DNA of 64,000 nt, from positions 2,976,001 through 3,040,000 of the forward strand of contig JAYWIR010000018.1 of the NCBI GenBank assembly GCA_036172245.1. The letters run 5' to 3'. Below the pieces are notes generated by a model. The model was given only the letters and a program-made list of their open reading frames with translations, had not been told where the DNA came from and searched no databases. The position numbers and the translations under genes are program-made. How positions within the stretch are numbered: position 1 is the first letter of the stretch; each line of letters starts with the position of its first letter. The stretch comes from Raillietiella orientalis (Eukaryota). Below are positions 22,749-51,954 of the stretch, in pieces.

Positions 22749-25206
22749 TCAAGCGACAGCGAGTAGTTCATTCCAATACTTAGGATTAATGTCCTTGAGG
22801 AGGCAGCCCATTACTCGTTTGGCCTTCTCAATATCAGCTAGTATTTGCGTTCGTGATTCATCACCAATATAAGAATGGCCAACCATCGCTGGTCCAAATA
22901 CCGTGGCTAATTTGTCAGCAGGCATCTTACATGCTGCACTTCTTGCTACACGACAGAGGTGTGATAGTAGGAAGGCTAGAGTGTCACGGTTTGGTACAGG
23001 TAACTGCTGTATTGCATTGTGAATACTCCTTCGTCTGACCTCAATGTCAGGAGATGTTGTGGCCTCAAGAAACGTCTCCAGGAACCTTGTGGGTATCACA
23101 TGTTCTGTGAGTGACTTCAAAAAGTCTTTGAGTACATTGCTCACAGTATGAATCTCGTGTAGATATAAGTTGGGTTTTCCAGGACTCTTCAGTAAGAGAT
23201 CCTGGGATGTAGATGGATAAATACAGGTCGAATAAAGGAAAGTTGCTCACCTTCAAGTCCTTCACATCTTTGACAATCCCTGGGTGTGCATAAATATTCT
23301 CCACTTCAAGACCTTGGTCTTCCACATGGTCGACACAACGTATAATGATAGCAGGTATATAAGGGCGTATAAAGTACTTGAAATTTTCAAGGTCACCTTC
23401 TTTCTTTATCTGAGGAGTGGTAGCGCATGGTAATGGGACTAAAATTTGGCACTTATGGTGACATAATGCACGGCAACCAATACAAAGGTATCCTTTCTTG
23501 CCATTTGGAATGCTTTCCGCACACACGTTGCACGTTCTTGACTTAAGCGAACGTGAATCTTGAAAAGTGTGAGGTGTTTGGGGTAATTTCGAGCATGTTG
23601 TAGCCTCAAAAGGATAAAGTGCACGGGGTGATATCCAAACTGCTGCACCCTCGGCAGCAACAACAGGTTGTGATATTTGGCTGATTTCGTGTGCAGCCTC
23701 TCCTCTTAAAAGCAGATCACTTTCATCCTCAGACATGCGGATTGGTTTTGATGGTGGAGCTTCTTTGAATGCTTCGGGCACCTTCGAAGGAGACCCATTT
23801 TTTTCTATTTCACGGTCTGGGAAACTGTGAATATGAACCAAGCAAACAAATGAGTAAATACCTTCCTGGAGTACCCTGGAATCTACTGCAACATCAAGAT
23901 CACCAGTAACTTTTGCCGCTGCAGAAAATCGTGTTGGACTTTCCAAGACTGTATCTGCTTCCAATTTCTAGAGAGTTGTGAAAGGTTTGCAAAAATCAGC
24001 TGGTTGTTTGCCAATGAACACTTGCTTCGTCAGTAGCAGAAAGTTCCTCTGAAGGGCGAGTCTTCTTTGGAGGAGGGGTTTCATCTAATGTTCTCTTCTC
24101 CCGAGACGTCATGCTGTATTCCGTGTCACGTGAAAGTTCCAAGTCATCTGCTACGGAAGTGCTCTCGCGGGCTGCTGCACCTGCATATGTATTTATTCAA
24201 CATATGTACTCCGCTTGAACCCTCTCAGCATGAAATCCAAATGCAAAGTTTCCAAAATGACCATGTTGAAACATTTCACATCTCAAACGACCACAAAATC
24301 ATCGTCAGACTATTGGAAACGCCCATAATTAAGTTGACTATTCGCAATCGAGAATCGAATCGACCGGTGTTGGCTCAGTGGACAGTGGCCGCATGTGGAC
24401 AGTGAACGTACAGCATGGATGTTCATTGAAAGATTCAAACATTCACGAGTGTTCGAATCTACAGGTTAGAATGAAAAGTAACGGTACCACGATCCTCGTC
24501 TGAAACTCTCACATCTGGGAACTCCTTCTGGGCAGATTCGGTACTCATTCTCCGCTTCAAATACGGATGAACAATTTTTTTAGATTCCAGCAAGTCTTGC
24601 AACAAATATATGTGAGTATCCTATAAAATTTTTCAGTGCACAAAGTTAGAATAAGCTTCATCATTATAGCATTCAGTCGAACCTACCAAATCACGCAAAT
24701 GCCGTTCATAATTCCGCTTTGAAGCTCTTCCTTCATCAAGAAATTTTGCCACATCTCTCAAGCTATCTAAGAGTTCAACTTTTTCATTGGTGTCATAATC
24801 TGGTAAAATTTCCCAATTTTGATTTCTGGTTTCCCATGCCTCAATGATCCTTTTCAGCAGGAAAGCCCACTGCCACAATTTGGAAACGCTCTCTGTAATA
24901 AAGAAACGTAGTGAATAGAGGAGACTTTTGGAGAATGTTTTGCAATACAACCAAATATAAATTTTCAGAGTATTCTTTAATTTTCTGATACGCTGAAATT
25001 AATTTCATCATTCAAATAGATTATACGATGCAATATAACACAAGGAAACGGTAATGATTGCGATAAACTGATGACATTTCCACAAAATGCCAACGATTAT
25101 AACGTAGGAAGTTACCAGTTTGCTCCATCAGGGTATCCACACTGCTCCTTAACTCCTCCACGATCCCATCGAGAATCCTTCTGTTCTTTTCGTCTGTTGT
25201 TGCCAT
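22749..25206 (-). CDS. RacGAP1/CYK-4-like paralog, copy 3 (Arg finger replaced by Ala; predicted GAP-dead)
   Basis: Exon 1 MATTDEKNRRILDG..., coiled-coil exon 24892-24687, C1 at 23425-23571. GAP segment reads ENIYAHPG instead of GIYRVPG. TGA after ELLAVA. Confidence 0.85.
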
Positions 25207-27545
25207 AGTTCGTTAATAAAAGTATTCTTCAAACAATTTGACAGGGAAATGTTCCTCTCAATAATTTCTCAATGCTGAATCCTGAAAACGAGATATAAGG
25301 TTAGAATTCGCGGAATGGTTTCCGATGAAACCGTACCAAAGTCCTGGGGGATGCACACAGGATAGACGCTGAACCGTAATCAAAGAGGTAGGACAGTTGG
25401 CGAGGTGATGGACGAATTGAGCGCTTTCCGATAGAAGACTGGCAGCCGACAGATATCGGGAATCTTCCTCGCAGATTGCAAAAAGTAGTCGATTCTTGGT
25501 TACTAAGGAAATTAGCAGGGAGCAGTAAACCAATTAGTGACTTCTAGTTCTTCAAGGGAAAGGGGAGTTGTTTCTCACTAGGGAGGAAGAGTGTCTTGGA
25601 AGAAAGAAAGTAGCAATTTCCGAGGAAAGACTCGAAGAAAGGTTCTCTAAGAGGTTTCCATGGCGAGCTGGTGTTGTCAATGGAGGACGGGTTGTGTGTG
25701 CCATCCGGACGAACTTGCGGACTGTCCTTTCTCTCGTGTTCAAAATCTTACTAGCTACCAATTCTTATGACTTTCCAACGCCGTTTCCGAAAATACCAAC
25801 AAGCATTTCCATTCCACACCCTCTTCCAGAACAGACGGAAACAACAAACCCGCAGGCTAGCCACGGCTAGCGGCCCTAAGTGGCCGGACCGCGTCCACGA
25901 CTACATGGCAAAGCAGACGTGGTTAGCACAGAGAAAGGAGATGCACACAGGATCCTCACGCCTGCTACCGATGGCATTTTGTCTCTGCAGTATCCCACAG
26001 TAGCAATCGTAGCTTTCTGCTGCGCTGCCGCGAAACCTCAAACACGGTCACAAAGGATACAACGCGGTCATATTGGTCCCCGCAGAAAGTCCCATGCACA
26101 CGCGTGTCTTCGCTTTCCCCCGTCCGTCTTCCCTTTCCTGCCCAGCGCGAACCCGTACCAGGGATATGTAGGTAGGAAAATCTTGAAACGATCGTATGTA
26201 ACGCACATCGCCCTTTTCGACACCGTCACTCTGTCGAATGTTGGCGTGTGAGGAATTCCTGGAACAACCTGACTCGTGGAAATGAGGTGCTCAAAATCAA
26301 CTCTGCACAAAGTTGGCCCGAAATTTTCTGAATTGCAAATGAAATTCCCTATGCCTTGAAGCACTCGCCACACCTCCGACAGCAGAAAGGACAAAGAACA
26401 CAACGCAGCAGCGCGTGCGTTCCGCCTTTCCTTCATTATGGCATGTCGTCACCTCTTTTCGTCTTCAGTGTCCTAAGATGAGCAACGCACGCAGGCAGAC
26501 AACTCATCCGCGAGATCTGAAATCGGTCCTTCAAGATGCTGCGTACGTTATGTTCACAGCATCTCCGTTTTCCCACTGTTAGGTAAACGACCTGTTTCGG
26601 CATCCATCGTTGGACCTGGGTCTCTGCACCTCGTTTGCCCTGCACCGTTGCTCTTCTTCGAGATTGAACTAATTAACTTCATTTTGTATCTTCGTAACGA
26701 CAAGTTCGGCACACTGTCAACTTTCGGCAGCCTATCCTCATATTCCCACGTGCGGTCACTTTTCTCACACTGTTTCCGAGCATGCAGTACTTCACAAGTA
26801 TACGTCATCTTCCCCGTTAGGTAGCACCGAACTGAATGTTCAAAGGAAACAAAAAGAAAGGCACCTTGATGCAATCGCCGTACTTTGCTTTCATTTGTTT
26901 GGTTTAGTTCGATGCATCTTCCATTTTGATGATGGTCTTTCAACTTGGTTGACCAGCGACGGGTTGCCTCCTTGCATACCTACGCAACGCCCGTATGCCA
27001 GCAGAGCAACCCGAACTGGTGGGGGATGACGACCATGCCAGCAGTTCTTGCCCCGCCTTCGCATTTTGCTACTTCTCTAAATCACACCGTTTTCCTTCTC
27101 TCCATATTATGGAGTCAGCGAAAACCAAACACCCTTGAGATGGATAACGCGGGAAACACATTGAAACGCTTTCGAAAGATTTCCTCTAAGCTCTCCACTG
27201 GACGCGAGGCGTTCCGTTTTCGGATGGGCATCAAAAGAGATGGCAATCCAAAGCAGCGGTTACATGTGAACATGTACCATCCGGAGGCTTGGGCTTTTCC
27301 AGCTACATTCCCAACCAATCTTTGAACACTACAGCCATGAGAATGCAAACGCGATTTCCAGTCTTGCTTGCAGTGGGCTGTTGTCGCTGTTCCTTTCGAA
27401 CAAATGGAAATACGAATGCTGTCCATCTGTATTCTTCGAAGGCTAATATTCACACATGCGCCTTCTCACCCGGACGGTGTCGTTTCCACCTGTGTCGTCG
27501 CATGCAACCATCACATATGGTGTGCCATTCGTTTCCTGCATGTCG

Positions 27546-28085
27546 GAGCCACACAACACCAGACCTGCCGGGACGCTGGGACGCAGCCCGGCGTGGCAGT
27601 TCTCGGCAGTGAAAGTGGATGGGGGAAAAACAAAAAGAAAAGTAAACCAGTAAAAAAAAAGAAGCTGTTTTTGGAGGGAAGGGATGGGATCACAGTTCAC
27701 TGGGAGGAGGGTGCATCCTTAGTAGGATACCCTCGAGGTCCTCCTTCAATATTCCCAGCTGGGGCCATCCAATAGCTCTCCGCAGGAAGCGAACAGCATA
27801 TGGGATGACGTCCATTACGGTGGGATCTTTATCTTCGGCATTACTCCAGTCCGCCACGATATCACGGATGCATCAAAGTGCTGCGAGGGCTGCGGCTGCA
27901 CTGAGGGGGTCCCGCACGAAGAGAAGACTGTAAACATTCCTGGGGTTGCCCCCTTCCGGTATTCCGAGGGCCGTTCCAAGACGATCCCAAAGCATCCGGA
28001 CGGCAGGGCAGTCAACTAGGAGGTGGGGGAGCGACTCCCGCTCCCCACACCTGGCACACGCAGGATTTACTCTTCCCCGCGACTA
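27546..28085 (-). mobile_element. 3' fragment of an L1/Tx1-like element (element E: C-terminal CCHC region and 3' UTR)
   Basis: Minus strand reads RGRVNPACARCGERESLPHLLVDCPAVRMLWDRLGTALGI, then a pyrimidine-rich UTR and the family stem-loop. The terminal AATAAA and hairpin are missing. Confidence 0.85.
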
Positions 28086-28168
28086 ATTAACGCGTCGCGC
28101 CATGGTTCGGATGGTCGGGTGATGGAGGGAGCCCTTGCGGTCGCTGTCGACTCGCGCAAAGCTTTCGA

Positions 28169-31100
28169 TTTTCACCCGGATTTCTCCGGGTCGTTTATTA
28201 AAAAATAAACTTTATAAAGAAATTATTTATGGCTGTGGCAATGCTCCAGCCAGAAGCGAAGAACCACGTAGCCTGCCAATTCACCGGTTTCTAGACCGGT
28301 ACGGTCCACCAAGGCAGCAGGGGAAAGGGGAAAAACAAAAAACTAAACAAAAAGAAACAAAGGGTGGGAGGGAACGGGAAGGGATCACTGATGCTGCTGG
28401 TGCCGCATCATCCCTCTCAGGATGCTGGCAAGCTCTTGTTTGTTGTGAACATCCAGGTGGGGCCATCGCGACGCCCTCCTCAGGAATTCGGAGGCGCACT
28501 GGATGGCTTCCTGATCGCTAGGTCCTCCCGTCGCCGTGCTCCATGCGGCGACGATCCCACGAAGGCAGCACAAGGCTGCTATCGAGGACGCTGGCCGGAG
28601 GGCGTCGGCAACGAAGAAGGCTTTTAGTGCGTCCCTGGGGTTGCTGCAAGGGATACCGATGGCCGCGGCAAAGCGGAACCAAAGGGGCCGAAGGGCAACA
28701 CAATCCACTAGGAGGTGGGGGAGGGACTCCCGTTCCCCGCACCTTACACAATTGGGATCCACCGCTCCCCAGGTCCAGTGGTGTCGACGGGCGTTGCAGG
28801 GGAGTCCCCAGTGCTGCAACAGGAATGCCGACTCTTGCCATTTTAGGGGGAGGATGGAAGTGTTCATAAGAATCGGGGGCCACTTCAGATGTTCAATCGG
28901 AACATCCAGCAGCGCTCCCCAGCGCAGAAGTCCATTAGGAGGCGTACTCGGGGTCGCAGCATCAGTTAGCTGGCCCGTCTTCCACTCTCTCTGCTTCTTC
29001 TCCTTCCCGGAGATTTTTATTGTAACCTCCCACTTTGCCGCAACATCGCTGTCCTGATGTTCCACTAGGGAGTCCAGCGCAGCAGCGAGGGGGGTTCTTC
29101 CTGACCACACTCTCTTCTTAGGATCCTCCAGGATCTCACGGAGCGTGCAACTTCTGTAACACCCAAACAGGAACCTTCGTTCCTGATGGGAGGGTTGCAT
29201 GCCGAACTGTCCCCACGTGCGAACGGTTTCCTGCAACCAGGCACTACCGTTCGCGGGGAGACAGGTGATCCATCCTTGATTTTTCCTTGCCAGCGCAGCC
29301 ACCCTCCGTAGCTGAAGCCCACATCGGTTGATGCGGCGGCGATGGAGTGCAAGAAACGACGTAAGTCCCGTCTTGCCGGTGGCTTGCTGAAGGAGGAGAC
29401 GTGCAGGGACGCACCAACAGGTGCACCACAACTCCGGCACAAGTGCCAAAATCCGGAACTGGAGCTGCAGCTCCAGCCGCTCCAATGTCAGGAGGCCGAG
29501 ACCACCGTCCCGACGCGGAGCGCACAAGTCCTTTAAGCGGACTCGGGCCCTCCCGTTGCCCCAAAGGGCGATACGGAGGAGGTCCTTCGTCCGCTTTTTG
29601 ATCCTCTCTGTGGGGGGGCAAACAAAAAGCAGGGAACGGAGGAGAGGAGCCGCGAACGTGTTCCAAACCGCGGCCCGTTCAGGCAGGAAAAACCTGCCGC
29701 CTCGGAACGGGCCGATAGCCGTCTCTACTTTTTGAAGGCAGCCGGACCACGCTTCCGCAGGGGAGTAGTCCCCCAACGGCACACCAAGGTACTTGAAGTA
29801 CCTCACCGTGGGGATTCCCAAACGGACCCAGTCCTGCTGCCCTGCCCACGCCGCACCAACTGGCATCACGCACGACTTCGCCCTGTTCACCGTGAGCCCG
29901 GTTCCTCGATTCAGCAGGTCGAAGAACTTCTCGACCGCCGAAGCCGGGGTGGACATAGGGAGCAGTAGCAGCAGGTCGTCCGCATATGCTGAAACCGCAG
30001 GCGTTCCGGCGCATTCATGCGGCAGGTGCGCCAGAGTTTCCTTGCACGCTTTCAGTACCAACTCAAAGTAGGTACTGAAGAGCAAGGGGCTCAGGCTGTC
30101 TCCTTGCCGGATCCCACGTCGCACCGGCACGCCGTGAACAGTATGCCCGCTGAAAGTAACATTGATTTGCGCATCGCGCCAGCTAGAGCGCAGATAGGCC
30201 AATAATGAGGCCGGGAAGCCCAAGCGTTCCAAAAGCTCCAGCAGGAGATTCTGGTCGACGCTGTCGAATGCTTTACGCAAGTCGACAGCGACCGCAAGTG
30301 CTCCCTCCCCCATCCGACCATCCGTCGCATGACTGACGGACTCACCGGAATTCCCGGTGCGCATCAAGCCCCTGTCGTGTTGGAGCTCTAGCCAGGTGGA
30401 AGCGTGGAACAGGTTCGCCTCCATGCTTCGCCCCGGAACAGCATACTTCTGTTCCGGGCTGATGAAGGCGTTTGCAACCCGTCCCAAGCGCTCAGCCCAA
30501 ACCTTAGCTATCAACTTGGCATCCGCATTCACTATTGTGATGGGACGCCAGTTGTTCATGCTCCTCAGATCTCCTCCCTTAGGGAGAAGCCGCACCTTTG
30601 CCGAACGAAACGAGGCGGGAACGTCACCTGTCTCGCGTATCAGCAAGGTGAGTTGATGTACCATGGGGGTAAGCTCAGCCGCGAAAGTTTGGTAAAACTC
30701 CGCGGACAGGCCGTCCTCCCCTGGAGCCTTGCGCCTCTTGAGCTTTCCGATGGCCGAGATGATCTCGCCCATCGTGAAAGGCTCGTCGAGGGACTTTTTC
30801 TCCTCTTCCCCGATCGCAGGAGCGCCTTCCGGAAGCAGGAGTCGTGAGAAATCCCGCTCGGGAGGCGTTCTTGCGTACAGGGAGGAGTAAAAACGCCGCA
30901 GCGGACCGCGGATCTGAGCGGGTGCCGAATGCTCCTGGCCCTGATCGTCCAGCAAGCTGGCCGATCCTGACTTCCAGGCTTGCCTCTCGGCTCCCGCTTT
31001 GTATTCCGCCAGCCTGCGGATGTCGGGGGTCCTGGCGTAACGGCGAGCCTGCAGATAGGCTCGTTCGTTACGTACCCCGTCCCCAAATCCCGAAGGTAGG

Positions 31101-31399
31101 CGGTGCCGAGGGAACTGGTCGCAGGACTCCTGGACCGACCGTTTGAAGCGGTCCCAATCCTGAAGTGTCTGCATCCTGAAGCTCCGTATAAACGTGCGGA
31201 GATGTTCCGTCGCGTCCGGGAGCTTCAGCCAGTCCCCTGGCAAACGCCACGCTGACGAGGGGGGGCCCTTGTCGCGCGGAAGGATTTCAATCACGATTGG
31301 TCGATGGTCGGACAACTCGCACGGTAACTTGCAGCGCCTACCCACACGAGTGCATAGGTGCTCGTCAAAGAACACGTGATCGATGTTGTCCTCCATTCC
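28169..31399 (-). mobile_element. L1/Tx1-like element B (5'-truncated, uninterrupted ORF2 remnant) inserted antisense into element C
   Basis: 9-bp TSD agctttcga at 28160-28168 and 31400-31408. 3' end on the minus strand is aataaacgacccggagaaatccgggtgaaaa. Confidence 0.95.
28385..31396 (-). CDS. ORF2 remnant of element B: end of APE endonuclease, reverse transcriptase, C-terminal CCHC finger (1003 aa)
   Basis: IDHVF...SDH, KAPGEDG, WRPITIVNADAK, VDLRKAFD, GIRQGDSLSPLLF, YADD, FKYLG and CVRCGERESLPHLLVDC, with no internal stop. Confidence 0.93.
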   Translation of the reverse strand: MEDNIDHVFFDEHLCTRVGRRCKLPCELSDHRPIVIEILPRDKGPPSSAWRLPGDWLKLPDATEHLRTFIRSFRMQTLQDWDRFKRSVQESCDQFPRHRLPSGFGDGVRNERAYLQARRYARTPDIRRLAEYKAGAERQAWKSGSASLLDDQGQEHSAPAQIRGPLRRFYSSLYARTPPERDFSRLLLPEGAPAIGEEEKKSLDEPFTMGEIISAIGKLKRRKAPGEDGLSAEFYQTFAAELTPMVHQLTLLIRETGDVPASFRSAKVRLLPKGGDLRSMNNWRPITIVNADAKLIAKVWAERLGRVANAFISPEQKYAVPGRSMEANLFHASTWLELQHDRGLMRTGNSGESVSHATDGRMGEGALAVAVDLRKAFDSVDQNLLLELLERLGFPASLLAYLRSSWRDAQINVTFSGHTVHGVPVRRGIRQGDSLSPLLFSTYFELVLKACKETLAHLPHECAGTPAVSAYADDLLLLLPMSTPASAVEKFFDLLNRGTGLTVNRAKSCVMPVGAAWAGQQDWVRLGIPTVRYFKYLGVPLGDYSPAEAWSGCLQKVETAIGPFRGGRFFLPERAAVWNTFAAPLLRSLLFVCPPTERIKKRTKDLLRIALWGNGRARVRLKDLCAPRRDGGLGLLTLERLELQLQFRILALVPELWCTCWCVPARLLLQQATGKTGLTSFLALHRRRINRCGLQLRRVAALARKNQGWITCLPANGSAWLQETVRTWGQFGMQPSHQERRFLFGCYRSCTLREILEDPKKRVWSGRTPLAAALDSLVEHQDSDVAAKWEVTIKISGKEKKQREWKTGQLTDAATPSTPPNGLLRWGALLDVPIEHLKWPPILMNTSILPLKWQESAFLLQHWGLPCNARRHHWTWGAVDPNCVRCGERESLPHLLVDCVALRPLWFRFAAAIGIPCSNPRDALKAFFVADALRPASSIAALCCLRGIVAAWSTATGGPSDQEAIQCASEFLRRASRWPHLDVHNKQELASILRGMMRHQQHQ

Positions 31400-33291
31400 A
31401 GCTTTCGACTGCGTCGACCAGGAACTCCTTCTGGAGCTTCTGGAGCGCTTGGAATTTCCGGCCGTCTTCCTGGCCTACCTGCGCTCCAGCTGGAGCGACG
31501 CGATAATCAACCTTTCTCTCAGCGGGCAGTCCGTGTACGGCGTGCCGGTGCGGCGTGGGATACGGCAGGGAGACAGCCTGAGCCGTTTACTCTTCAGTAC
31601 CTACTTTGAGTTGGTACTGAAAGCGTATAGGGAAGCTCTGGCGCACCTGCCGCACGACTGTGCCGGTACGCCGGCCGTTTCAGCGTACGCGGACGACCTT
31701 CTGCTGCTGCTCCCTATGTCCACCCCGGCTTCGGCGGTCGAGGAGTTCTACGACCTGCTGAATCGGGGAACCGGACTTACGGTGAACAGGGCGAAGTCGT
31801 AAGTAATGCCAGTTGGTGCGGCGTGGGCAGGGCAGCAGGACTGGGTCCGTTTGCGGATCCCCACGGTGAGGTACTTCAAGTACCTTGGTGTGCCGTTGGG
31901 GGACTATTCCCCTGCGGAAGCGTGGTCCGGCTGCCTCCAGAAAGCAGAGACGGCGGTCTCGGTCTCCTGACATTGGAGTGGCTGGAGCTTCAGCTCCAGT
32001 TCCGGATGTTGGCCGTTGTGCCGGAGTTGTGGTGCGCCTGCTGGTGCGTCCCTGCACGTATCCTCGTCAAGAAATCCACCGGGAAGACGGGACTCACGTC
32101 CTTTCTTTCACTCCATCGCTCCCGCATCAATCGATGTGGGCTCCAGCTGCGGAGGGTGGCTGCCTTGGTTCGGAAAAACCACGGATGGATCACCTGTCGC
32201 CCCGCGAACGGTAGTGCCTGGTTGCAGAAACCGTTTGCACGTGGACACAGTGCGGCATGCAACGCGCCCAACAGGAACGACGGTTCCTGTTTAGGTGCTA
32301 CAGAAGTTGCACGCTCCGAGAGATCCTGGAGGATCTAAAGAAGAGAGCGTGGTCAGGAAGAACCCCCCTCGCTGCTGCGCTGGCCTCCCTAGTGGAAGAT
32401 CAGGACAGCGATGTTGCGGCGAAGTGGGAGGTTAATGTAACCATCTCCGGTAAGGAGAAGAAGCAGGGAGAGTGGAAGACGGGCCAGTTAACAGACGCTG
32501 CGACCCCAAGTACGCCTCCCAATGGACTTCTGCGCTGGGGCGCGCTGCTCGATGTTCCGATTGAACATTTGAAGTGGCCCCCAGTGCTCATGAACACTTC
32601 CGCCCTCCCCTTAAAATGGCAGGAGTCGGCTCTACTGTTGCAGCATCGGGGACTTTCCTGCAACACCCGCCGACACTACTGGACCTGGGGAGCGGTGGAC
32701 CCCAATTGTGTAAGGTGTGGGAGACGGGAGTCCCTCCCCCACCTGCTTGTGGATTGTGTTGCCCTTCGGCCCCTTTGGTTCCGCTTTGCCGCGGCCATCG
32801 GAATCTCCTGCGGCAACCCCAGGGACGCATTGAAAGCCCTCTTCGTTGCCGACGCCCTTCGGCCAGCGGCCCCGATAGCAGCCTTGTGCTGCCTACGCGG
32901 GATCGTCGCCGCATGGAGCACGGCTACGGGAGGATGACGCGATAAGGATGCCATCCAGGGCGCTGCCCAATTCCTGAGGAGGGCGTCGCGATGGCCCCAC
33001 CTGGATCCGCGAATACAAGAAGAGCTTGCCGGCATCCTGAGAAGGATGCAACGGCCCCAGCAGCAACAGTGATCCCTTCCCGTACCCTCCCACTCTTTTT
33101 TTTTTTTTGTTTAGTTTTTTTTGTTTTTCCCCCTTCCCCCTGCTGCCACGGTGGACCGTACCGGTCTGCGAACCGGTGACCCGGCAAGCTCTGTGTTTCT
33201 TCGTGAGTGGCTGGGGCATTGGTCCAGACACTGCACGTCTTTGTAAAAGTTTATTGTTTCAATAAACGCCCCGGCGGAATCCGGGTGAAAA

Positions 33292-33559
33292 TCGAAAGCT
33301 TTACGCAAGTCGACTGCGACCGCAAGGACTCCGAGCGTCACTGCTCCCCATCGGCCTCCCTCCCCCCGTTCAGTAAACAGTCCACGACTCTCTCGACCTA
33401 GCTGAGCCTCGCGTTTTTGCAACTGCCGCAAGCTGCTGGCGAGAAACAGGTTGGTCTCCATGGGTCGTCCGGGGACAGCGTAAGTCAGTTCCGGACTGCC
33501 CACGGATTCCGCCACCCATCCCAGTCGCTCAGCCCAAAGCTTGGCGAGCACCTTCGCGT
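33292..33559 (-). mobile_element. Internal RT fragment of host element E
   Basis: AKVLAKLWAERLG...YAVPGRPMETNLF...LAVAVDLRKAF, cut at the 3' end of element C. Confidence 0.85.
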
Positions 33560-36500
33560 GCAGACGTGTTTTGTTAGCGCTCCGTCTGCGCCTGCTGGGA
33601 AGCCTACATTTGAGTGTGTTTGTTTGTGGTACATAGTCGGTGTCCTATGGCAGGAATGCCTGAGGACACTGCGATGGATATCGGAGGGGGAGAGGCTTGT
33701 TCCTCTCCCCAGCCCACGGAAGTGGGGGCGACCGCCCCCACGGAGGCGAGGCCAACCGCCCCCTTGAAAAAGGGGGCAACTGTGTCCTCGGATACGTCTT
33801 CGACAACGACGAAGACCTGGAGCGCCGTGGCTGCAGCGCCATCACCTGCAGCCATAGCAGAGCAACATGCCTACCTGGAACAAGGATACAAGCCGTCCTT
33901 GATTTATAAGGTAGGCAATTTGTTTGTGGGCAATACCGCTTGCAACTTTGAAAGAGACATGCAGTGGCTTAACATTAAGGAGGAGGACCTGGAAGGTCTT
34001 TCCTTGATGAGTGGGTGTCAGCGGGTGGAGCTGACTTGCAAAGATGCAAGCCTGGCTCAGCGCCTGCTCAATACCCCCATCACGCTGGGAGGCCGAAAGG
34101 TCTTTCCGGTAACTGAGGATCGCTCTATAGTGGCGCACCTTACCGGAGTAACTCTCCGCATGACCAAAACTGGCGTGCAGGAGGAGTTGAAGAAGTACGT
34201 CATGGTGGACGCACTCTGGACCAAGCCCAACGTCTTCCAAACCTATGGAAGACTGTTCAGTGGCATGACCGCAGCGCGTGTGACCGTCCACGAAAACGGT
34301 GGGCTACCCCACAAACTGGACGTCGGCAACGAGACGGTCGACGTCTAGTACGTGAGTAAACCCAAGTACTGTGGAAACTGTGATGCCACAGGGCACCTGA
34401 AAAAAACGGTGCCCTCACATCCAGTGCTTCCACTGGGGGGAGAAGGGCCACCTCCGGAAAGTGTGCCCAAAGCGCGAAACTCCGGCTCCCCCTGCTTTGA
34501 AAAAAGCTAAGGGGAAACGCGCGGAAAAAATGCAGAAGCCCAAAGAGGCAGAAGGAAGGCAAAGTCAAAAGCCAGAGCCCGAAACCTCCCAGCAAACGCC
34601 GGTCGAGAAAACTCCCGACGACGCTGGTGGAAACAGGGGCTGGCGGACGGCGAAGCCAAAAAATAAAAAACTTAAGAAAACCGAAGGCCCGAAAGAGGAG
34701 CCCGCGACGACTCCCTTAAATAGGAGACAGCGCCGCGCATTGCTCCGCGAATGTTCGATCGCCTTGGAGCGCGTAGAGGTCCCAGAGACCGCCAACGGGG
34801 GAGATATCCCCCGCCTCGTTGTCGTCGAAGCCGCGATCACCGAAAGCGAACCCTCTGTGCAAACAGAAGAGGAACTGTGCGACGTGCTCTCCGCAATCGA
34901 GGACGCCGCCTTCCAACAGGCAGCGGAAGAACTCGCGGCCGAACTCGCCGGCCGTGAGAACGGCGCGCGAAAGGCCTTGCGAAGGCCGGCCGCGACCAGG
35001 GCACCTCCGACAGGTGACCACGACCCGGATGCCGGAAGTGCGTCCTCTTCCACGGAGGCGCCTCCCAAGAAGACAGGGCGGAAGTCCAAGAATCCAAAGA
35101 GGCGCATCCCTACGAAGAAGGAGGGGGACGCACCGGCAGCCGAGGGGGAAGCCGGCAGCGTGGGAACGGAGAGAGGGAAATTCCCACTCCCCGCGACCGA
35201 GTAGCTGGCCACCCCCATGGAGGAGGGAGAACCGGTGCACGATGCACCCCCTTCTCCATCCGTCCCGCCCGACCAGGCGGCGGGAGCCTCCTTGCCACAA
35301 TCCCAGGAATAACACCTGGGCTCGCCTGTCGCCGTCGGATACGCGTAGCCTGCTGGAATGTCAACGGGCTAAGCGACGACGGCAACAGACGGGACACAGC
35401 CGCCACCCTGCGTGACTTCGACCTGGCACTCCTGCAGGAGATCGAGAGGATCGCAGGGGGACGGTTGCTGTGGAATGCGGCACCCGATACACCTGCGGCG
35501 TCGAGTTTCTCATGAAGCCGGCGGTCGGCGCTGCCGTGAAGGGCGTGCGCTTCGACGAAGCCGGTTGTGTCGGCCAGCTGATTCTTAAGTGGTCCGACAC
35601 GATCGACCTCGTCGTAACAAACGTGTATGCCCCGAGCGGTCCAGCCAGGTACCAGGAACGTGCGGCGTTCCTGGAAACCCTGGCTGGTGGAAGCGAGCGT
35701 GCGCAGGGCTCACCTGATAGCGGGAGACTTCAATCTCCACCTGCTATCAGGTGATCCCCGCGCACAGGAACGGACGGCTAACGAGTTGTGCGCTGCCATG
35801 CGCACGCGCAACTTGTTAGGGGATCTCCCGGAAATGGTTAGCAGCATCGACCACGTCTTCCTGGATGTCGACCTGTGTTCACGGGTCGGCAAACGGGGGA
35901 AAGTTGCGTCGGAGCTGTCTGACCATTTCCGGTTAATATTCGAGGTGTGCCCGCGCGATAAGGGCCCCCCATCCAGGGCGTGGCGGCTGCCAGGGGACTG
36001 GACGCGACTCTCAGGTGCGAAAGAACACCTTCGCGAATTCCTGAGAGGCGTCACCTTCCGGAATCTCAACGATTGGGACCTTTTTAAGGCCCCGGTCCGC
36101 GAGTTCTGCGAGGAGTTCCCCTTGCACCGCCTGCCCCCCGGATTTGAGGAGGGAGTCCGTAACGAAAGGGCGTATTTGTTTGCCCGTCGTTACGCGAGGA
36201 CCCCCAACGTCCGTCGCCTGGCAGAGTACCGAGCCGGGGCCGAACGCCAAGCCTGGCAACCCGGTCGGCCAGCTTGCTGGACGACCAGGGCCGGGAGCAC
36301 TCGGTCCCGGCTGCAATACGGCACCTCGTGCGGAGATTTTGTTCCTCCCCTTACGCCAGGGACCCCCCGGAGCGAGACGCCTCCCGGAGCTTGCTTCCGG
36401 ATGGTGCCCCGGCAATGGAGGAGGAGGAGAAGGAAAGCCTCGACGAGCCTTTTACCACCGGCGAAATTCTCGCCGATATCAAAAGGCTCAAGAGTCGTAA

Positions 36501-39042
36501 GGCGCCAGGGGAGGACGGCCTGCCCGCGGAGTTCTTCCAGTGCTTCGCGGAAGAGCTGACTCCCCTGGTGCTCGAGTTGACACGGCTGATCCGAAACGAA
36601 GGCGATGTTCCCGCCTCGTTTCGATCAGCCAGGGTGAGGCTCCTTCCCAAGGGAGGAGACCTCAGAAAACTCAGCAACTGGCGTCCGATCACAATTGTGA
36701 ATACGGACGCCAAGCTGATCGCCGGACTGTGGACGTCGCGATTGGGGCAGGTGGCAGACACCATAATTAGCCTGGAGCAGACTTACACTGTTCCCGGGCG
36801 AAGTATGGAGGCCAACCTCTTCGCGAGCACATGGTTTCATGTGCAGAGATGCGAAAATAAGAAAGAGGGAATGATTGGCAGCCCCACTTTGGGGCGTCAG
36901 CCGGGCAGGGATGGCACACCTAGGCGGGGAAGGGGGCCCTAGCGATCGCGGTAGATCTGCACAAAGTGTTCGACTGCGTGGACCAGGATCTCCTGCTGGA
37001 GCTCCTGGATCGCATGGGCTTTCCACCCTCCCTACTGACCTTCTTGCGCTCTTGCTGGCGCAGCGCGCTAATTAATATCTCTTTCAGAGGTCAAATAGCG
37101 TACGGCGTGCCGGTACGGCGGGGCATACGGCGGGGCATACGGCGGGGCGATAGCCTGAGTCCCCTGCTCTTTAGCACCTACTTCGAGTTGGTGCTGAGAG
37201 CGTATAGGGTGACTTTGGCCCCCTTGCCGAGCTCGTGCCCCGGCACGCCCGCCGTAGCAGCTTATGCTGACGATCTTCTGCTCTTGTTGCCAATGTCCAC
37301 CCCGGCAAAGGCAGTTGGGGAATTCTTCGACCTGCTTAGCCGCGGGACCGGACTGCAGGTAAACACGGCCAAGTCGTCGGTGGTGCCAGTTCGTGCGGCG
37401 TGGTCAGGGCAGCAGGACTGGGTCCGTTTGGGGACTATTCCCCTTCGGAAGCGTGGTCCGGCTGCCTCCAAAAAGTTGAGACGGCGATCGGCCCGTTCTT
37501 GGAAGACAAGTTTCTCCTTCCGGAACGGGCCGCGGTGTGGAACGCGTTCGCGGCTCCCATCCTCCGCCCCTTGCTTTTTGTTTGCCCCGTCCCGCCCCAG
37601 TTGAAGAAACGGACAAAGGACCTCCTGAGAATTGCCCTTTGGGGAAGAGGGAGGCCCCGAGTCCCGTTGAAGGACTTGTGTACTCCGTGTCGGGATGGCG
37701 GTCTCGGCCTCTCGACACTGGAGCGAGTGGAGATTCAGCTGCGATGCCGCACCCTGGCCATCGCAGCGAAGTTATGGAGCACCCCATGGTGCGTTCCGGC
37801 CCGCCTCCTTGCCAACCATGTATCCGGGATGGAAGGTTTCGCGTCGCATCTTCTGTGCCGTGGCCCGAAGATCAAGAGATGAGGTCTTCTCCTGGGACGC
37901 ATGGCAAGTCTGGCTAACAAAAACGGCTGGATGGTATGCAGGCCCGCCAACTCCGTATGGCTGGAGGAGACAACTGGCACGTGGGCGAAGATCAACGAGA
38001 AGAGCCACGAGAAGTGGAACTGCCTGCGACACGGCTCTTCGCCCGCTGCACTCTGCGGAAGATATTAGAATGTAGCTCAAGGAGCACGTGGGCAGAGACA
38101 ACCCCACTAGCTACGGCGATGCCCTTTCTGAGGAGGGCGCTCACCAGCAGCCGCATGCCTAGGTGGCAAGTCTCCTGCCGTATCGCAGGCAGAGAGAAAC
38201 TGATGAGCGGCTGGACTACGGGGCAGCTGGCTGACGCCACGACCCGAAGTGTCCTCCCGCGCGGACTAATGAGAAGGGGCGAGCTGCTAGGCATCCCTAC
38301 GGATGACCTGAAGTGGCCCCCGGTATTCATTGGCTCGAGGATCCTCCCCCTGAAGTGGCAGGAGTCGGCGCTTCTGTTGTTGCATTGGGGCCTACCCTGC
38401 AACGCACGCCGCCACCACTGGACACGGGGTCGAGTGAATCCCGCCTGCATCAGGTGCGGGGAGCTGGAATCCCTCCTCCACCTCCTTGTTGATTGTGCTG
38501 CCCTCCGACCCTTGTCGGAGGGCAGCACAGGGAATTCCCTGTGGGAACGTCTTGGTACCTCCCTACGGATCCAGGTGGGCAGCCAGCCCAAAGACGTTTT
38601 TCGGCTTCTGTTCGTGCAGGACGCCCTGCGACCAGCCGCAGCCCTGGAGGCACTCTGCTGCATCTTAGGGATTGTGACGTGCTGGAGCGACGTGAAAAGA
38701 CCGAGCCACGATAAGGATGCCGTCGAACTTGCAATCTGCTACCTGGCGATTGCGACCAGATGGCCCCACTCGGGAATTATACCGACGGACCACGAGGGAA
38801 TCCTGGAAAGGATGGATTCTCCTCGCAACACAAAGTGATCCCTTCCACACCCTCCCAAATCTTTTTGTTTTTCTGTTTAATTTTTCTTTTTGTTTCCCCC
38901 ACCCCTTCCGCAGCCGAGGGGAGTCGCGCCGGTCTGCGTACCGGCGACCCGGCAGGTCCTGTTGTGTTGGCCGTAGTGGGACCTAGTACCTCGAATTATA
39001 GTGACTTTATAATAAACGCCTCGGCGTGACCGGGTGGCAACT
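33560..39042 (+). mobile_element. Near full-length but decayed L1/Tx1-like element D (ORF1 with zinc knuckles; ORF2 APE-RT-CCHC)
   Basis: ORF1 ~33647-35204 carries two CCHC-like knuckles (CGNCDATGHLKK.C and CFHWGEKGHLRKVC) with a stop and a frameshift. ORF2 runs from IRVACWNVNGL (~35340) through LLQE, NVYAP, GDFN, SDH and YADD to 38838, with several frameshifts. 3' end aataaacgcctcggcgtgaccgggtg. Degenerate 13-bp TSD agcaccttcgcgt / agcaacttcccgt. Confidence 0.92.
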
Positions 39043-39190
39043 AGCAACTTCCCGTAAGCATTCATTACAGTGATGGGACGCAAGTTGCCAACGTTGCGCG
39101 TCTCCTCCCTTGGGTAGCAGACGTACTTTACCTGACCTAAACGAGTTGGGGGCATCCCCACGTTTATGGATCCACATACAAGCAATCCTA
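39043..39190 (-). mobile_element. 5'-most RT fragment of host element E
   Basis: RGDAPNSFRSGKVRLLPKGGD...NLRPITVMNAYGKLL, collinear with the fragment that resumes at 33559. Confidence 0.8.
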
Positions 39191-39640: not shown

Positions 39641-42105
39641 TTAATAAGATCGAGCGATATAGAGTAGTTCATCCCAATACTCGGGATTAATGTCCTTGAG
39701 GAGGCAGCCCATTACTCGTGTAGCCTTCTCATTATCAGTTAGTATTTGCGATGGTGATTCTTCACCAAGATAAGAATGGCCAACCATCGTTGGCCCAAAT
39801 ATCGTGGCTAAGTTGTCAGCAGGCAACTTACATGCTGGACTTCTTGCTACACGGCATAGGTGTGATAGTAGGAAGGCTAGAGTGTCACGGTTTGGTACAG
39901 GTAACTGCTGTATTGCATTGTGAATACTCCTTCGTCTGACCTCAATGTCAGGAGATGTTGTGGCCTCAAGAAACGTCTCCAGGAACCTTGTGGGTATCAC
40001 ATGTTCTGTAAGTGCCTTCAAAAATTCCTGCAGTACACTGCACACTATATAAATCTTATAGTGAGATAGGTAGGTTTCTCCAGGAGTCTTCAGTAAGCGA
40101 TCCTGGGAAGCATATGCATGCATGCACGAGGAATAAAATGAAAATTTTTTACCTTCAACTCCTTCACTGCTTTGTCAGCACCCGGGATTCGATAAATACC
40201 CAGCTCTTGAAGACCATGGTCTTCCACATGTTGGACGCAACGTATAATGATGGCAGGTATTTGAGGGCGTGTAAAGTACACGAAATTTCCGAGGTCGCCA
40301 CTTTCTTTTATCAGCATAGTAGTAAGGCAAGGCAATGGCATTAAATGTGCACATTTCATATGGCAAAATGCAGAGCAGCTAGTACAGACGTAGTCCAATT
40401 TGCGATCTCCAAGGCGTTTTCCGCATCCTTGGCACACTCTTCGATTGGTCAAACGTGTAGCCGTAAATCTATGATCATTTTGAGGTAATTTCGAGCATGT
40501 TGTCGCCTCAAAACGATAAGGTCTTCTGGGTACTATCGAAGATGCCGCATCCTTTGCAGGAAGAACAGGTTGTGTTTTTTTGCTGATTTTGGGTAGAGCC
40601 ACTTTTCTTGTAAGTCGATCGCCATCATCTTCAGATCGGAGGTCACCTTTTGGTTTTAGAAGTTTTTTTAATCCTTCCGGAATTTTGAAGTAAGACATAA
40701 GTTTTTTTCTTTTGCGGTCTGTAAAACTGTGATTATTGACCAAGCGGATGTTCAAATACCTTTCTGGAACACCCTGGAATGGACTCCAAGTTCAAGATCA
40801 CCAGTAACTTTTGACGATGCAGCAATTCGTTTTGGACTTTCCAAGACTGCATCCGCTTCCAATTTCTAGAGAGTTGTGAAAGGTTTTCAAAATTCAGCTG
40901 GTTGTTTGCCAATGAACACTTGCTTCGTCAGTAGCAGAAAGATCATCCAAAGGGCGAGTCTTCTTTGGAGGAGGGGTTTCATCTAATGTTCTCTTCTCCC
41001 GAGACGTCATGCTGCATTCCGCGTCACGTGAAAGTTCCAAGGCATCTTCTACGGAAGTTCTCTCCCGGTCTGCTGCGCCTGTATACGTATTTATTCAATA
41101 GTGTGTACTCTCCTGAACCCTTCTCAGCATTGAATCCAAATGCAAAGTTTCCAAAATGACCATGTTGAAACATTTCACATCTCAAACGACCACAAAATCA
41201 TCGTCAGACTATTGGAAACGCCCATAATTAAGTTGACTATTCGCAATCGAGAATCGAATCGACCGGTGTTGGCTCAGTGGACAGTGGCCGCATGTGGACA
41301 GTGAACGTACAGCATGGATGTTCATTGAAAGATTCAAACATTCACGAGTGTTCGAATCTACAGGTTAGAATGAAAAGTAACGGTACCACGATCCTCGTCT
41401 GAAACTCCCACATCTGGGAACTCTTTCTGGACAGATACGGTACTCATTCTCCGCTTCAAGTACGGATAATCAATTTTGTGGGATTCCAGCAACTCTTGCA
41501 ACAAATTCACTTGATTTAGCTACAAAATGTTGCAGTACAGAATCTTTGAAATACCTTCATCATTATAACATTCGCTCGAACGTACCGTATCTCGCAACAT
41601 CCGTTTTAATTTCCGTTTTGCAGAGCTTTCCTCGTCCACAAGATTTCTCTTAGTTACCAATTTCTGTAAGATTGTCTCTTTTTCTTTGCTGAGATTCTCC
41701 CTCAAAATTTCCATCCTTTCATTTCTGGCTTTCAATTTGTCAATGATTTTTTTTTGCTCTCGAACAACTGTCACTAATTCCTGAGCATTCTCTGAAATAA
41801 ATAAACCCAATTCGTAAAGGATACTTTTGCATAGAGTTTTATAATACAACTAAATGTAAATTTTGAGATTATCCTTTATTTATCTGAAATGCTGAAATTA
41901 ATTTCATCATTCAAATAAATTATACGATGAAATATAATGCAAGAAAACGGTTATGATTGCGATGAACCGATGTCACTTCCACAAAATGCCAACGATTACA
42001 ACGGAGGAAGTTACCAGTTTCCGCCATCATGTTATCCAGACTGCAACTTAACTCCTCCACGATCCTATCGAGAAGTTTTCTCAACGTTTCGTCAGTTGTT
42101 TCCAT
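39641..42105 (-). CDS. RacGAP1/CYK-4-like paralog, copy 4 (Arg finger retained; LKDF changed to LQEF)
   Basis: Exon 1 METTDETLRKLLDR..., coiled-coil exon 41791-41586, C1 at 40327-40473, GIYRIPGADKAVKELK; stop after YIARSY. Confidence 0.86.
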
Positions 42106-45820: not shown

Positions 45821-48283
45821 TTAATAAGATCGAGCGATATAGAGTAGTTCATCCCAATACTCGGGATTAATGTCCTTGAGGAGGCAGCCCATTACTCGTG
45901 TAGCCTTCTCATTATCAGTTAGTATTTGCGATGGTGATTCTTCACCAAGATAAGAATGGCCAACCATCGTTGGCCCAAATATCGTGGCTAAGTTGTCAGC
46001 AGGCAACTTACATGCTGGACTTCTTGCTACACGGCATAGGTGTGATAGTAGGAAGGCTAGAGTGTCACGGTTTGGTACAGGTAACTGCTGTATTGCATTG
46101 TGAATACTCCTTCGTCTGACCTCAATGTCAGGAGATGTTGTGGCCTCAAGAAACGTCTCCAGGAATCTTGTGGGTATCACATGTTGTGTAAGTGACTTCA
46201 AAAATTCCTGCAGTACACTGCACACTTCATGAATCTTATAGTGAGAAAGGTAGGTTTCTTCAGGACTCTTCAGTAAGCGATCCTGGGAAGCATATGCATG
46301 CATGCACGAAGAATCAGTAAAAATTGCTCACCTTCAATATCCTCACATCTTCAACTAGCTCTGGAACTGCATAGATATGCCTTACGTGAAGACCATGTTC
46401 CTCCACATGCTGGACACAACGTACAATGAGCGCAGGTATATGAGGGCGTGTAATGTACGAGAAATTTTCAAGGTCTCCACTTTCATTTATCAGCGGAGTA
46501 ATAATGCAAGGTAATGTCACTAAACGTACACATTCCAGATGGCAAGGAGCAGAGCACATAGTACAGGCATAGGCTAATTTGCCACCTCCAATGCGTTCTC
46601 CACATCCTTGGCACACTCTTTGATTGATCAAAAGTGAAACCTTAAAACTATGATCTAATTGCGGTAATTTCGAGCATGTTGTCGCCCGAAAATGATAAGG
46701 TCTTTGGGGTAATATCAAAGATGCCGCATCCTCGGCAGGAAGAACAGGTTGTGTCGTTTTGCTGATTTCGGATGCAGCCTCTTTTCTTGGAATTAGATCA
46801 CTTTCAACCTCAAATCTGAGGATTGGTTTTGTTTGCGTGGCTTCTTTGAATCCTTCCAGCACCTTTGAAAGAGACCCAATTTTTTCTTTTTTGTGGTCTT
46901 GAAAACTGTGAGTATGAACCAAGACGATGTCCAAATACCTTTCTGGAGCACCCTGGAATGGTCTCTAAGTTCAAGATCACCAGTAACTTTTGACGATGCA
47001 GCAATTCGTGTTGGACTTTCCAAGACTGCATCCGCTTCCAATTTCTAGAGAGTTGTGAAAGGTTTTCAAAAATCAGCTGGTTGTTTGCCAATGAACACTT
47101 GCTTCGTCAGTAGCAGAAAGATCATCCAAAGGGCGAGTCTTCTTTGGAGGAGGGGTTTCATCTAATGTTCTCTTCTCCCGAGACGTCATGCTGTATTCCG
47201 CGTTACTTGAAAGTTCCAAGTCATCTGCTACGATAGTGCTCTCACGGGCTGCTGCACCTGCATATGTATTTATTCAACATATGTACTCCGCTTGAACCCT
47301 CTCAGCATGAAATCCAAATGCAAAGTCTCCAAAATGACCATGTTGAAACATTTCCCATCTCAAACGACCACAAAATCATCGTCAGACTATTGGAAACGCC
47401 CATAATTAAGTTGACTATTCGCAATCGAGAATCGAATCCACCGGTGTTGGCTCAGTGGACAGTGGCCGCATGTGGACAGTGAACGTACAGCATGGATGTT
47501 CATTGAAAGATTCAAACATTCACGAGTGTTCGAATCTACAGGTTAGAATGAAAAGTAACGGTACCACGATCCTCGTCTGAAACTCTCACATCTGGGAACT
47601 CTTTCTGGACAGATACGGTACTCATTCTCCGCTTCAAATACGGATGAACAATTTTGTGAGATTCCAGGATGTCTTGCAACAAATTCACTTGATTTAGCTA
47701 CAAAATTTTGCAGTGCACAAAGTTAGAATAAGCTTCGTCATTATAACATTCACTCGAACGTACCATATCTTTCAACTCACGTTCATAATTCTGTTTTGAA
47801 GATCTTTCATCGTCTATAAATTTTCTCGCTTTCATTAACATTTCTAACACTTCTCCAGTTTCTTTGGTTTCATAATCTAGCAAAATGTCCATGTTATCAT
47901 TTATGAATACCCATTTGTCAATGATCCTCTTCTGCTTGAGATTCCGATTCCATAATTTAGAAACGCTCGCTGAAATAAATAAACCGAATCCTCAGAAAAG
48001 ACTTTTGCATAGAGTTCTACAATACAACTAAATATAAATTTTTAGAGTATCCTTTAATTGTCTGATATGCTCAAATTAATTTCATCATTGAAATTGATTA
48101 TACGATGCAATATCATACAAGGAACCGGTAATGACTGCGATGAACCGATGTCACTTCCACAAAATGCCAACGATTACAACGTAGGAAGTTACCAGTTTCC
48201 GCCATCATGTTATCCACACTGCTCTTTAACTGCTCCACGATCCCATCGAGAAGTTTTCTCAACGTTTCGTCAGTTGTTTCCAT
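45821..48283 (-). CDS. RacGAP1/CYK-4-like paralog, copy 5 (Arg finger to Ala and LKDF to LQEF; predicted GAP-dead)
   Basis: ATG at 48283, coiled-coil exon 47969-47764, C1 at 46506-46652. GAP segment reads RHIYAVPE. Stop after YIARSY. Confidence 0.85.
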
Positions 48284-51741: not shown

Positions 51742-51954
51742 TCGGAAAATATGAAAAAGCATTTTTTGTCTTTACTAAGAATATTTTCGTTCCCAAATGC
51801 TGCAATCCTCTGCTTTTCTACCAGACTTCTTCCATAATGGTTAAATCCCTGCAGATCATTCCCTTCAAGTCACATTGGGCCGAACATCCTTTCTACTAGG
51901 TGATTACATTCACAATTCCTCTCTCGACAATTTTCGTGAAGCACAAGTTTGTTC

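Follow-up and report, generated by a model that had tools for sequence, protein, structure and literature searches.

In a stretch of 64,000 nucleotides (nt) from Raillietiella orientalis (assembly GCA_036172245.1, contig JAYWIR010000018.1, positions 2,976,001 to 3,040,000 of the forward strand; the whole stretch is referred to below as the window), five tandem copies of a RacGAP1-like gene stand beside a parental gene, and two of them, copies 3 and 5, encode alanine in place of the catalytic arginine finger of the Rho GTPase-activating protein (GAP) domain. RacGAP1 (CYK-4) is normally a single, essential, conserved cytokinesis gene. From their sequence, we think that selection maintains copies 3 and 5 as members of a diversifying RacGAP1 family that are predicted to be catalytically disabled, and we do not regard them as decaying pseudogenes. 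The two genes, their exons and their finger codons are as follows, with aa standing for amino acids.

22749 to 25206, minus strand: copy 3 gene, 564 aa, homology-derived splice model with an open reading frame (ORF)
25116-25206, 24687-24892, 24488-24620, 24022-24180, 23862-23948, 23251-23816 and 22749-23201, minus strand: copy 3 exons
23287 to 23289, minus strand: copy 3 finger codon GCA (Ala), in NIYAHPGI
45821 to 48283, minus strand: copy 5 gene, 567 aa, homology-derived splice model
48193-48283, 47764-47969, 47565-47697, 47099-47257, 46939-47025, 46332-46897 and 45821-46282, minus strand: copy 5 exons
46368 to 46370, minus strand: copy 5 finger codon GCA (Ala), in HIYAVPEL

The other four loci keep the arginine codon CGA, which lies on the minus strand within GIYRVPGA in the parent (52656-52658), copy 1 (7221-7223) and copy 2 (17098-17100), and within GIYRIPGA in copy 4 (40189-40191). 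A first-pass annotation of this DNA had listed all six codons with their motifs, and every position proved exact on the minus strand. When the parent was aligned with HMMER to the human structures 3w6r and 2ovj (E of about 3e-37), the R of GIYRVPG fell on the R of human GLYRISG; the human RACGAP1 catalytic finger is reported as R385. The C1-GAP region of the parent was then compared with 1.84 billion representative proteins, giving 3954 matches at E ≤ 0.001, and the best 150 of these, together with three matches from another search, supplied a homologue alignment of 178 aligned rows. In this alignment the finger column holds R in 147 of the 156 homologue rows that bear a residue there and A in none. 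The finger Arg is missing from seven proteins (9 of the 156 rows), including those of two damselflies, a psyllid, a tick and Venturia.

Changing this Arg to Ala is described as the usual route to inactive Rho-family GAPs. Two reports (PMC4571299, PMC4552957) describe Xenopus MgcRacGAP R384A and R384K as failing in cytokinesis, and the C. elegans CYK-4 R459A GAP domain as having no detectable GAP activity while still folding and binding RhoA-GTP; for R384A, too, GAP activity is reported as lost, with folding and RhoA-GTP binding retained. CYK-4 R459A is described as accumulating to excess at the membrane and as recessive when wild type is present. The earlier assertion that Arg-finger-to-Ala is the standard GAP-inactivating mutation holds on the strength of MgcRacGAP R384A and CYK-4 R459A. 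The engineered MgcRacGAP and CYK-4 mutants concern the same residue, the same Ala and the same protein family as copies 3 and 5. They are, however, single laboratory substitutions in an essential gene, whereas copies 3 and 5 are natural, occur in extra paralogues, and carry six to eight further finger-loop replacements as well as other changes at contact residues.

These comparisons bear on the idea that copies 3 and 5 retain GAP activity, either through another residue or through a finger supplied by a partner. Copy 5 has an Arg four residues upstream of the finger (VRHIYAV), and the remaining domain matches the family profile from end to end. In the orthologues tested, however, R-to-A and even R-to-K are reported to abolish function, no Arg lies near the finger of copy 3, and the loop itself is changed at 7 to 9 of 16 positions. 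We regard retained activity as very improbable.

The changes around the finger extend beyond the Ala. Relative to the parent, the 16-residue finger loop has two changes in copy 1, one in copy 4, seven in copy 3 and nine in copy 5, the Ala included. Over the finger stretch, the parent and copy 4 are separated by several synonymous changes and a single conservative replacement, and because the loop differences between these two are mostly synonymous, the loop seems to have been under purifying selection where the Arg was kept and to have been remodelled where it was lost. In copy 3, the Gly shortly before the finger is replaced by Asn, and Lys stands at the conserved Asn before LATVFGP; copy 5 also has replacements of Gly by His, Gly by Glu and Lys by Gln. 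The last of these, K434Q, is common to copies 4 and 5, while the parent and copies 1 to 3 have Lys, the residue found in 154 of the 156 homologue rows. This near-invariant Lys belongs to the helix that follows the finger, and we take it to be at the Lys122 position of p50RhoGAP. The Asn before LAxVFGP, presumably the Asn194 position of p50RhoGAP, is N in copies 1, 2, 4 and 5, S in the parent, and K in copy 3 only; N occupies this column in 131 of the 178 aligned rows and S in 15, so that the family tolerates S. The canonical set of Arg, Lys and Asn is complete in copies 1 and 2 only. Across the 46 columns with at least 85% family consensus, departures number 5 in the parent, 6 in copy 1, 8 in copy 3, 8 in copy 4 and 11 in copy 5, and those specific to copies 3 and 5 include G394, R397 and G400.

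Aligned to the Pfam RhoGAP hidden Markov model (PF00620; cutoff 24.5 bits), a check that the first-pass annotation had proposed, copies 3 and 5 match significantly: exon 7 scores 87.3 bits in copy 3 and 83.9 in copy 5 (profile positions 47-146). The end of exon 6 (profile positions 1-35) scores 19.6-22.6 bits in copy 3 and 18.1 in copy 5, each alone under the cutoff; the domain is found as two pieces because intron 6 splits it. We also built a GAP profile of 190 positions from 145 homologue GAP rows and ran it on the spliced proteins. The parent scored 233 bits, copy 1 218, copy 4 209, copy 3 195.3 and copy 5 195.2, with a slight advantage to the parent because the alignment was seeded with it, and the matches of copies 3 and 5 span positions 5 or 6 to 189 or 190 of the 190. 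The statement that the GAP fold is otherwise intact stands, since both copies match end to end at 195 bits and retain the fold-defining residues and most of the core positions conserved in the family, with the caveat that copies 3 and 5 have extra losses at contact residues.

Upstream of the RhoGAP domain, Pfam C1_1 (cutoff 26.5 bits) scores 34.8 bits in copy 3, 32.7 in copy 5 and 32.1 in the parent, and all eight C1 zinc ligands are present and invariant among the copies. The N-terminal exons of the copies are colinear with those of the parent, whose own N-terminus aligns with homologues; the coiled-coil region is named from this colinear alignment. With the parent as query, the human RACGAP1 GAP structures are matched at E 3e-37 and other RhoGAPs at 9e-18 or weaker, and the RACGAP1 C1 structure 4b6d is matched at E 5.5e-15. 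Its named top matches are rac GTPase-activating protein 1 or 1-like proteins, from arthropods, a crinoid and a nemertean at 42-47% identity; among the best 150 of the 3954 matches, the parent is 34-47% identical to arthropod and other RacGAP1s, 47% being the highest. In DNA, the copies are 82-88% identical to the parent over the 3′ part of the GAP domain and its flank, about 1.3-1.9 kilobases (kb).

Using tblastn with RacGAP1 homologues and self-BLAST, we found six RacGAP1-like loci in the window, all on the minus strand. Read along that strand, the parent lies beside the array and is followed by copies 5, 4, 3, 2 and 1, so ordered in tandem units of about 6.2 kb that adjoin the parental gene. 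The remaining genes are:

51870 to 54514, minus strand: parent RacGAP1-like gene, seven exons, modelled protein of 641 aa, finger codon CGA (Arg) at 52656-52658
39641 to 42105, minus strand: copy 4 gene, 567 aa, Arg kept, finger loop near-identical to the parent, near-invariant Lys changed to Gln
16550 to 19018, minus strand: copy 2 gene, 567 aa, Arg finger kept
6672 to 9141, minus strand: copy 1 gene, 567 aa, Arg finger kept, protein identical to that of copy 2

Splice junctions were transferred by homology from an alignment of the six loci. Each gene has seven exons, the introns in the window are short (about 41-308 nt), GT..AG boundaries are present in each of the 36 introns of the six genes, and all 30 splice-site pairs in the copies are intact. 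The five copies contain zero frameshifts or premature stops, and their frames are open over 567 aa (copies 1, 2, 4 and 5) or 564 aa (copy 3). They are full-length genes with all exons present, covering the coiled-coil region, C1 and RhoGAP; partial or fragmentary copies were considered and rejected, since every exon was found. The copies stop just past the GAP domain, without the C-terminal tail of about 70 aa found in the parent, and the DNA beyond their stop still resembles that tail but has frame-breaking indels. AATAAA lies 365-377 nt past the stop in all five copies and 131 nt past the later stop of the parent. The units of copies 1 and 2 (6064-10988 and 15942-20865) are 98.9% identical over 4.9 kb, possibly through a very recent duplication or conversion, or through duplication in the assembly.

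Given these models, we asked whether the array as a whole, or copies 3 and 5 within it, could be unexpressed or recently dead duplicates in which the Ala is one neutral change in decaying DNA. Several features fit such decay. The ratio of nonsynonymous to synonymous divergence (dN/dS) between copies is about 1, copies 3 and 5 miss 8 and 11 of the 46 conserved residues where the parent misses 5 and copy 1 misses 6, all copies have lost the parental tail and bear frame-breaking indels past the new stop, and a homologous array was not found elsewhere in protein searches. Other results argue against decay. When the observed differences (242-370 per pair) were placed at random positions in 5000 runs per pair, a mean of 8.7-13.3 stops arose per pair (roughly 9-13 expected) and none of the 5000 runs for any pair was stop-free; the observed number of stops is zero. 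Among the five copies, indel events number 0 in exons (about 1.7 kb), 5 in introns (about 770 nt) and 6 in the 3′ flank (407 nt), and none of the 11 non-coding events is a multiple of three. The splice-site pairs (30 of 30) and the poly(A) signal are likewise kept. In the C1 domain, only 15 of 49 columns are invariant among copies, yet all 8 zinc ligands fall among them (hypergeometric P = 1.4e-5), and variation among copies touches 8 of 31 family-conserved columns vs 76 of the 120 remaining ones (Fisher P = 2e-4). We consider dead duplicates unlikely.

A different kind of signal came from the distribution of divergence along the units, which is mosaic. Expressed as the proportion of differing sites (p-distance), copies differ from one another by 0.26-0.45 in exon 2, the coiled-coil region, which is about 0.45 from the parent, and by 0.22-0.32 in exon 6, which encodes the linker, C1, GAP helix A and the finger loop. 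Intron 3 (about 307 nt), in contrast, differs by 0.003-0.049, and about 1.7 kb of upstream DNA mostly by 0.00-0.05, with many 100-nt windows at 0.00. Similarity between copies is likewise high in exons 3-5, in the later two thirds of exon 7 and in the 3′ flank. In 30-nt windows, peaks fall in exon 2, the C1 loops and the finger loop (0.38), and a trough (0.14) lies over the first GAP helix. The blocks concerned are:

24687 to 24892, minus strand: copy 3 exon 2, hypervariable block, with its copy 5 counterpart at 47764-47969
23251 to 23816, minus strand: copy 3 exon 6, hypervariable block, with its copy 5 counterpart at 46332-46897
about 25350-27050: near-identical upstream block of about 1.7 kb in the copy 3 unit, with equivalents in all five units

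The near-identical upstream DNA contains four ORFs in 25880-26979, with 0 Pfam matches, and over the whole window a search of Rfam at the gathering threshold gave 0 matches and 0 tRNA genes were found. The simplest reading of the mosaic is that the variable blocks are old and have been shielded from a gene conversion that homogenises the units, and we suggest that they are shielded because selection retains their differences. Import from unseen paralogues, or a locally raised mutation rate, may instead be the source of the variable blocks.

The Ala codons themselves may carry a trace of such exchange. They lie in a tract that copies 3 and 5 share:

23242 to 23297, minus strand: shared tract of about 56 nt in copy 3, holding the end of exon 6 with the finger codon, the GTGAGC donor and a shared 2-nt deletion; by offset, its copy 5 counterpart is at about 46323-46378

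The intron 6 donor is GTGAGC in copies 3 and 5 only, being GTAAAC in the parent and copies 1 and 2 and GTAAAA in copy 4, so that the common donor reported earlier for copies 3 and 5 was confirmed, with no other copy having it. Outside the tract, 103 of 128 informative sites pair copy 1 with copy 3 and copy 4 with copy 5, and 13 of 128 pair copy 3 with copy 5. Within a 57-column stretch (copy 3 23297-23242), 8 of 10 informative sites pair copy 3 with copy 5 against copies 1 and 4, and most of the pairing states are derived relative to the parent. Fisher's test of this contrast gives P = 3e-6, a value that is optimistic since the stretch was picked after inspection. An independent origin of the two Ala codons was rejected, as the surrounding tract is shared. 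The tract, GTGAGC included, bears out the earlier suggestion of common origin or gene conversion (8 of 10 vs 13 of 128 sites) and points to a single origin of the Ala, spread between copies 3 and 5 by gene conversion. Elsewhere in the array, intron 6 of copies 4 and 1 is close to the parent (p = 0.06-0.10) vs the rest of exon 6 (p of about 0.36), and the finger-loop region of copy 4 with intron 6 (40153-40260) is likewise close to the parent (52620-52727). These parent-like stretches suggest that conversion may also have taken place between the parent and the Arg-bearing copies.

The reading that we favour, and that we think probable though far from certain, is that of a lineage-specific tandem family of full-length RacGAP1 genes shaped by conversion and by diversification of their surfaces, in which copies 3 and 5 are non-catalytic binders. 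On this reading, five full-length paralogues of RacGAP1 (CYK-4, MgcRacGAP) would have arisen beside the parent, and most of each unit of about 6.2 kb would be held near-identical, with gene conversion the likely cause: in the coding sequence this covers exons 3-5 and the C-terminal two thirds of the GAP domain, and outside it the upstream DNA, intron 3 and the 3′ flank. The parts that form interaction surfaces would be kept different: the coiled coil (exon 2) and the linker, C1 loops, finger loop and first GAP helices, which exon 6 encodes together with the first part of exon 7. We propose that the catalytic Arg changed to Ala in one ancestral copy, that the tract of about 56 nt with its adjacent donor then became common to copies 3 and 5, and that the finger loop was altered after Arg loss, at 7 of 16 positions in copy 3 and 9 of 16 in copy 5, while remaining near-parental in copies 1, 2 and 4. 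The products of copies 3 and 5 would be made, would adopt a RhoGAP-like fold and would not stimulate GTP hydrolysis. They would instead act as non-catalytic binders with altered partner specificity, whether as a scaffold, as a trap or in a new function. The pseudo-GAP reading of copies 3 and 5 is supported as far as sequence can take it.

Several points weigh against this account. Between copies, Nei-Gojobori dN/dS is 0.96-1.24 overall, which alone is compatible with neutral decay, and no block is demonstrably above 1, with values of 0.74-1.7 in exon 2 and the linker. With structural sites clearly constrained, an average near 1 implies that other sites exceed 1, so that positive selection is reached only indirectly; gene conversion would confound a formal codon-site model of it. 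The variable blocks also extend about 100 nt into the flanking introns, and synonymous divergence in the variable exons is itself high (0.3-1.0). Such divergence indicates either old differences spared from conversion or import from unseen paralogues, and recent adaptation alone would be insufficient to produce it. The near-identity of the non-coding DNA could in part be an effect of assembly, the gene models draw on homology and GT..AG boundaries only, and copies 3 and 5 may have lost function very recently. Protein searches returned no close relative or other species with the array, the best identity being 47% among the best 150 of the 3954 matches; a word-indexed search of longer proteins with exon 6 of copy 3 gave 261 candidates, 0 of them at E ≤ 0.001.

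The mosaic also invites an alternative in which the array is a conflict-driven diversity locus, of a germ-line or meiotic-drive type or of an immune type, acting on the GAP of centralspindlin, with Arg-less members trapping or antagonising Arg-bearing ones. Such a locus would account for homogenised non-coding DNA beside maintained or accelerated hypervariability of the coiled coil, C1 and the GTPase face. A stronger version, proposed because synonymous sites in exons 2 and 6 are 5-40 times more diverged than the neighbouring introns, would have mutation itself locally elevated in these two exons. We hold this alternative to be quite improbable.

The first-pass annotation had gone further than loss of catalysis and proposed that copies 3 and 5 act as dominant-negative decoys or scaffolds alongside active paralogues. 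As decoys, they would join centralspindlin or bind the GTPase of the active paralogues, and so block these. The coiled coil, C1 and GAP architecture is kept in the copies, and the CYK-4 work describes an R-to-A protein that still binds RhoA-GTP and over-accumulates at the membrane. The same work, however, describes CYK-4 R459A as recessive beside wild type, which argues against an automatic dominant-negative effect. Copy 5 lacks the near-invariant Lys and a loop Gly, and copy 3 lacks the conserved Asn. In the RacGAP1 family, the coiled-coil part mediates assembly. Since the coiled-coil exon is the most diverged part of the genes (0.26-0.45 between copies and about 0.45 to the parent), changed partners are favoured over shared ones. 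In the parasitoid wasp families discussed below, furthermore, key-site substitutions are taken as loss of both GAP activity and GTPase binding in almost all members. We judge the decoy model improbable.

The closest precedent for such a family is the set of RacGAP1-derived, vesicle-associated RhoGAPs of parasitoid wasps, and by analogy copies 3 and 5 would be a natural repeat of the wasp pattern. According to a study of these genes (bioRxiv 10.1101/2023.06.05.543686), RacGAP1 duplicates in Leptopilina (venom) and Venturia (calyx) gave rise to multigene families, partly in tandem, with positive selection on surface residues and constraint on buried ones. In L. boulardi, all 8 venom RhoGAPs except LbmGAP are substituted at the catalytic Arg, in V. 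canescens the calyx RhoGAPs except VcVLP2 are all altered at at least one key site, and peptides were detected for all members (same source). As there described, the wasp families and this array share RacGAP1 duplication followed by further, partly tandem duplication, substitutions at the Arg and other GTPase-contact residues, with one or a few members keeping these, and accelerated divergence on surface residues with buried ones constrained, in genes that still look functional. Unlike the wasp families as reported, this array has full coiled coil, C1 and GAP regions, lacks the Arg in 2 of 5 members, and lies beside the parent; what it adds to the wasp pattern is the very sharp difference between non-coding DNA that is homogenised and interaction surfaces that are hypervariable. 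Beyond the wasps, our literature search on RacGAP1 paralogues, duplication and positive selection found no further such family.

The likeness to the wasps raises the question of whether the array could be an exported or virulence-type RhoGAP set. The two sets have in common their origin from RacGAP1, a tandem layout, fast divergence and, in some members, loss of the Arg. However, the Leptopilina family is described as truncated at the N-terminus and carrying a signal peptide, whereas the array copies keep the full-length N-terminus and the full intracellular architecture, and their first residues, judged by eye, are acidic and hydrophilic and show nothing like a signal peptide. The Venturia family is described as packaged into virus-like particles in a parasitoid. 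The identities of the parent to arthropod and other RacGAP1s (34-47%) are also too low for a wasp origin of the array. An exported set is, in our view, highly unlikely.

Arg-less RacGAP1-like proteins recur in several arthropods (our matches P0124, P0131, P0097, P0100 and P0140), and the matched Venturia protein has three GAP-like repeats, every one without the Arg. At the finger position, Hetaerina americana has Q, Ischnura elegans S, Diaphorina citri K and Ornithodoros turicata I. These proteins, with some unnamed assembly-derived ones, are 448-658 aa long and align over C1 and GAP; none has Ala, and they are about 35-43% identical to the window proteins among the best 150 of the 3954 matches. 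More distant parallels exist in the BH domain of p85 and the RhoGAP-like domain of OCRL1/INPP5B, where a RhoGAP fold without the catalytic Arg is used for binding; these are ancient conserved single genes, in contrast to the recent hypervariable tandem paralogues described here. In Drosophila, RacGAP84C is a paralogue of RacGAP50C/tumbleweed. RacGAP84C is described as a negative regulator of Rac and Cdc42 that is needed for spermatid cyst elongation (PMC3469442). Like the array, it is on that description an extra RacGAP-type gene beside the cytokinesis gene, in its case with a specialised germ-line role; unlike the array, it is described as an active regulator and is a single gene and not a hypervariable array.

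Several further features accompany the array. Copies of a non-LTR (long terminal repeat) retrotransposon, with a G+C content of 56-62%, interrupt it at about 10989-14664 and 27546-39178. Both orientations are represented, the copies are in part inverted repeats of one another, and the insertions share one relative position between units; one 1029-aa ORF contains RVT_1 (81.5 bits), and a separate ORF has a CCHC-like motif. Past the 3′ end of copy 1, the segment 4000-6000 is GC-rich (61%) and has long low-complexity ORFs on both strands. Upstream of the parent and divergently oriented, a LEM-domain gene lies at 56321-60211 on the plus strand, with LEM at its N-terminus (43.5 bits) and, by eye, a resemblance to a MAN1-type C-terminal domain in a later exon. 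Exons of a Rab3-like GTPase follow at 62796-63647 on the minus strand, the first being 82-99% identical to Rab3 of many phyla (1376 matches). No kinesin-6 was found within the 64-kb window.

The role of RacGAP1/CYK-4 GAP activity has long been debated. The array offers a natural series in one genome: copies 1 and 2 are canonical, copy 4 is without the Lys, copy 3 without the Arg and Asn, and copy 5 without either the Arg or the Lys. With these, the role of the GAP fold without catalysis could be studied in a ready-made allelic series. The pattern of RacGAP1 duplication, fast diversification and catalytic Arg loss is also extended beyond parasitoid wasps, which suggests, by analogy, that RacGAP1 may be a recurrent substrate for new functions. 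With near-identical non-coding DNA set against exons that have diverged by 22-45%, the array would be a clean case of concerted evolution opposed by selection for diversity.

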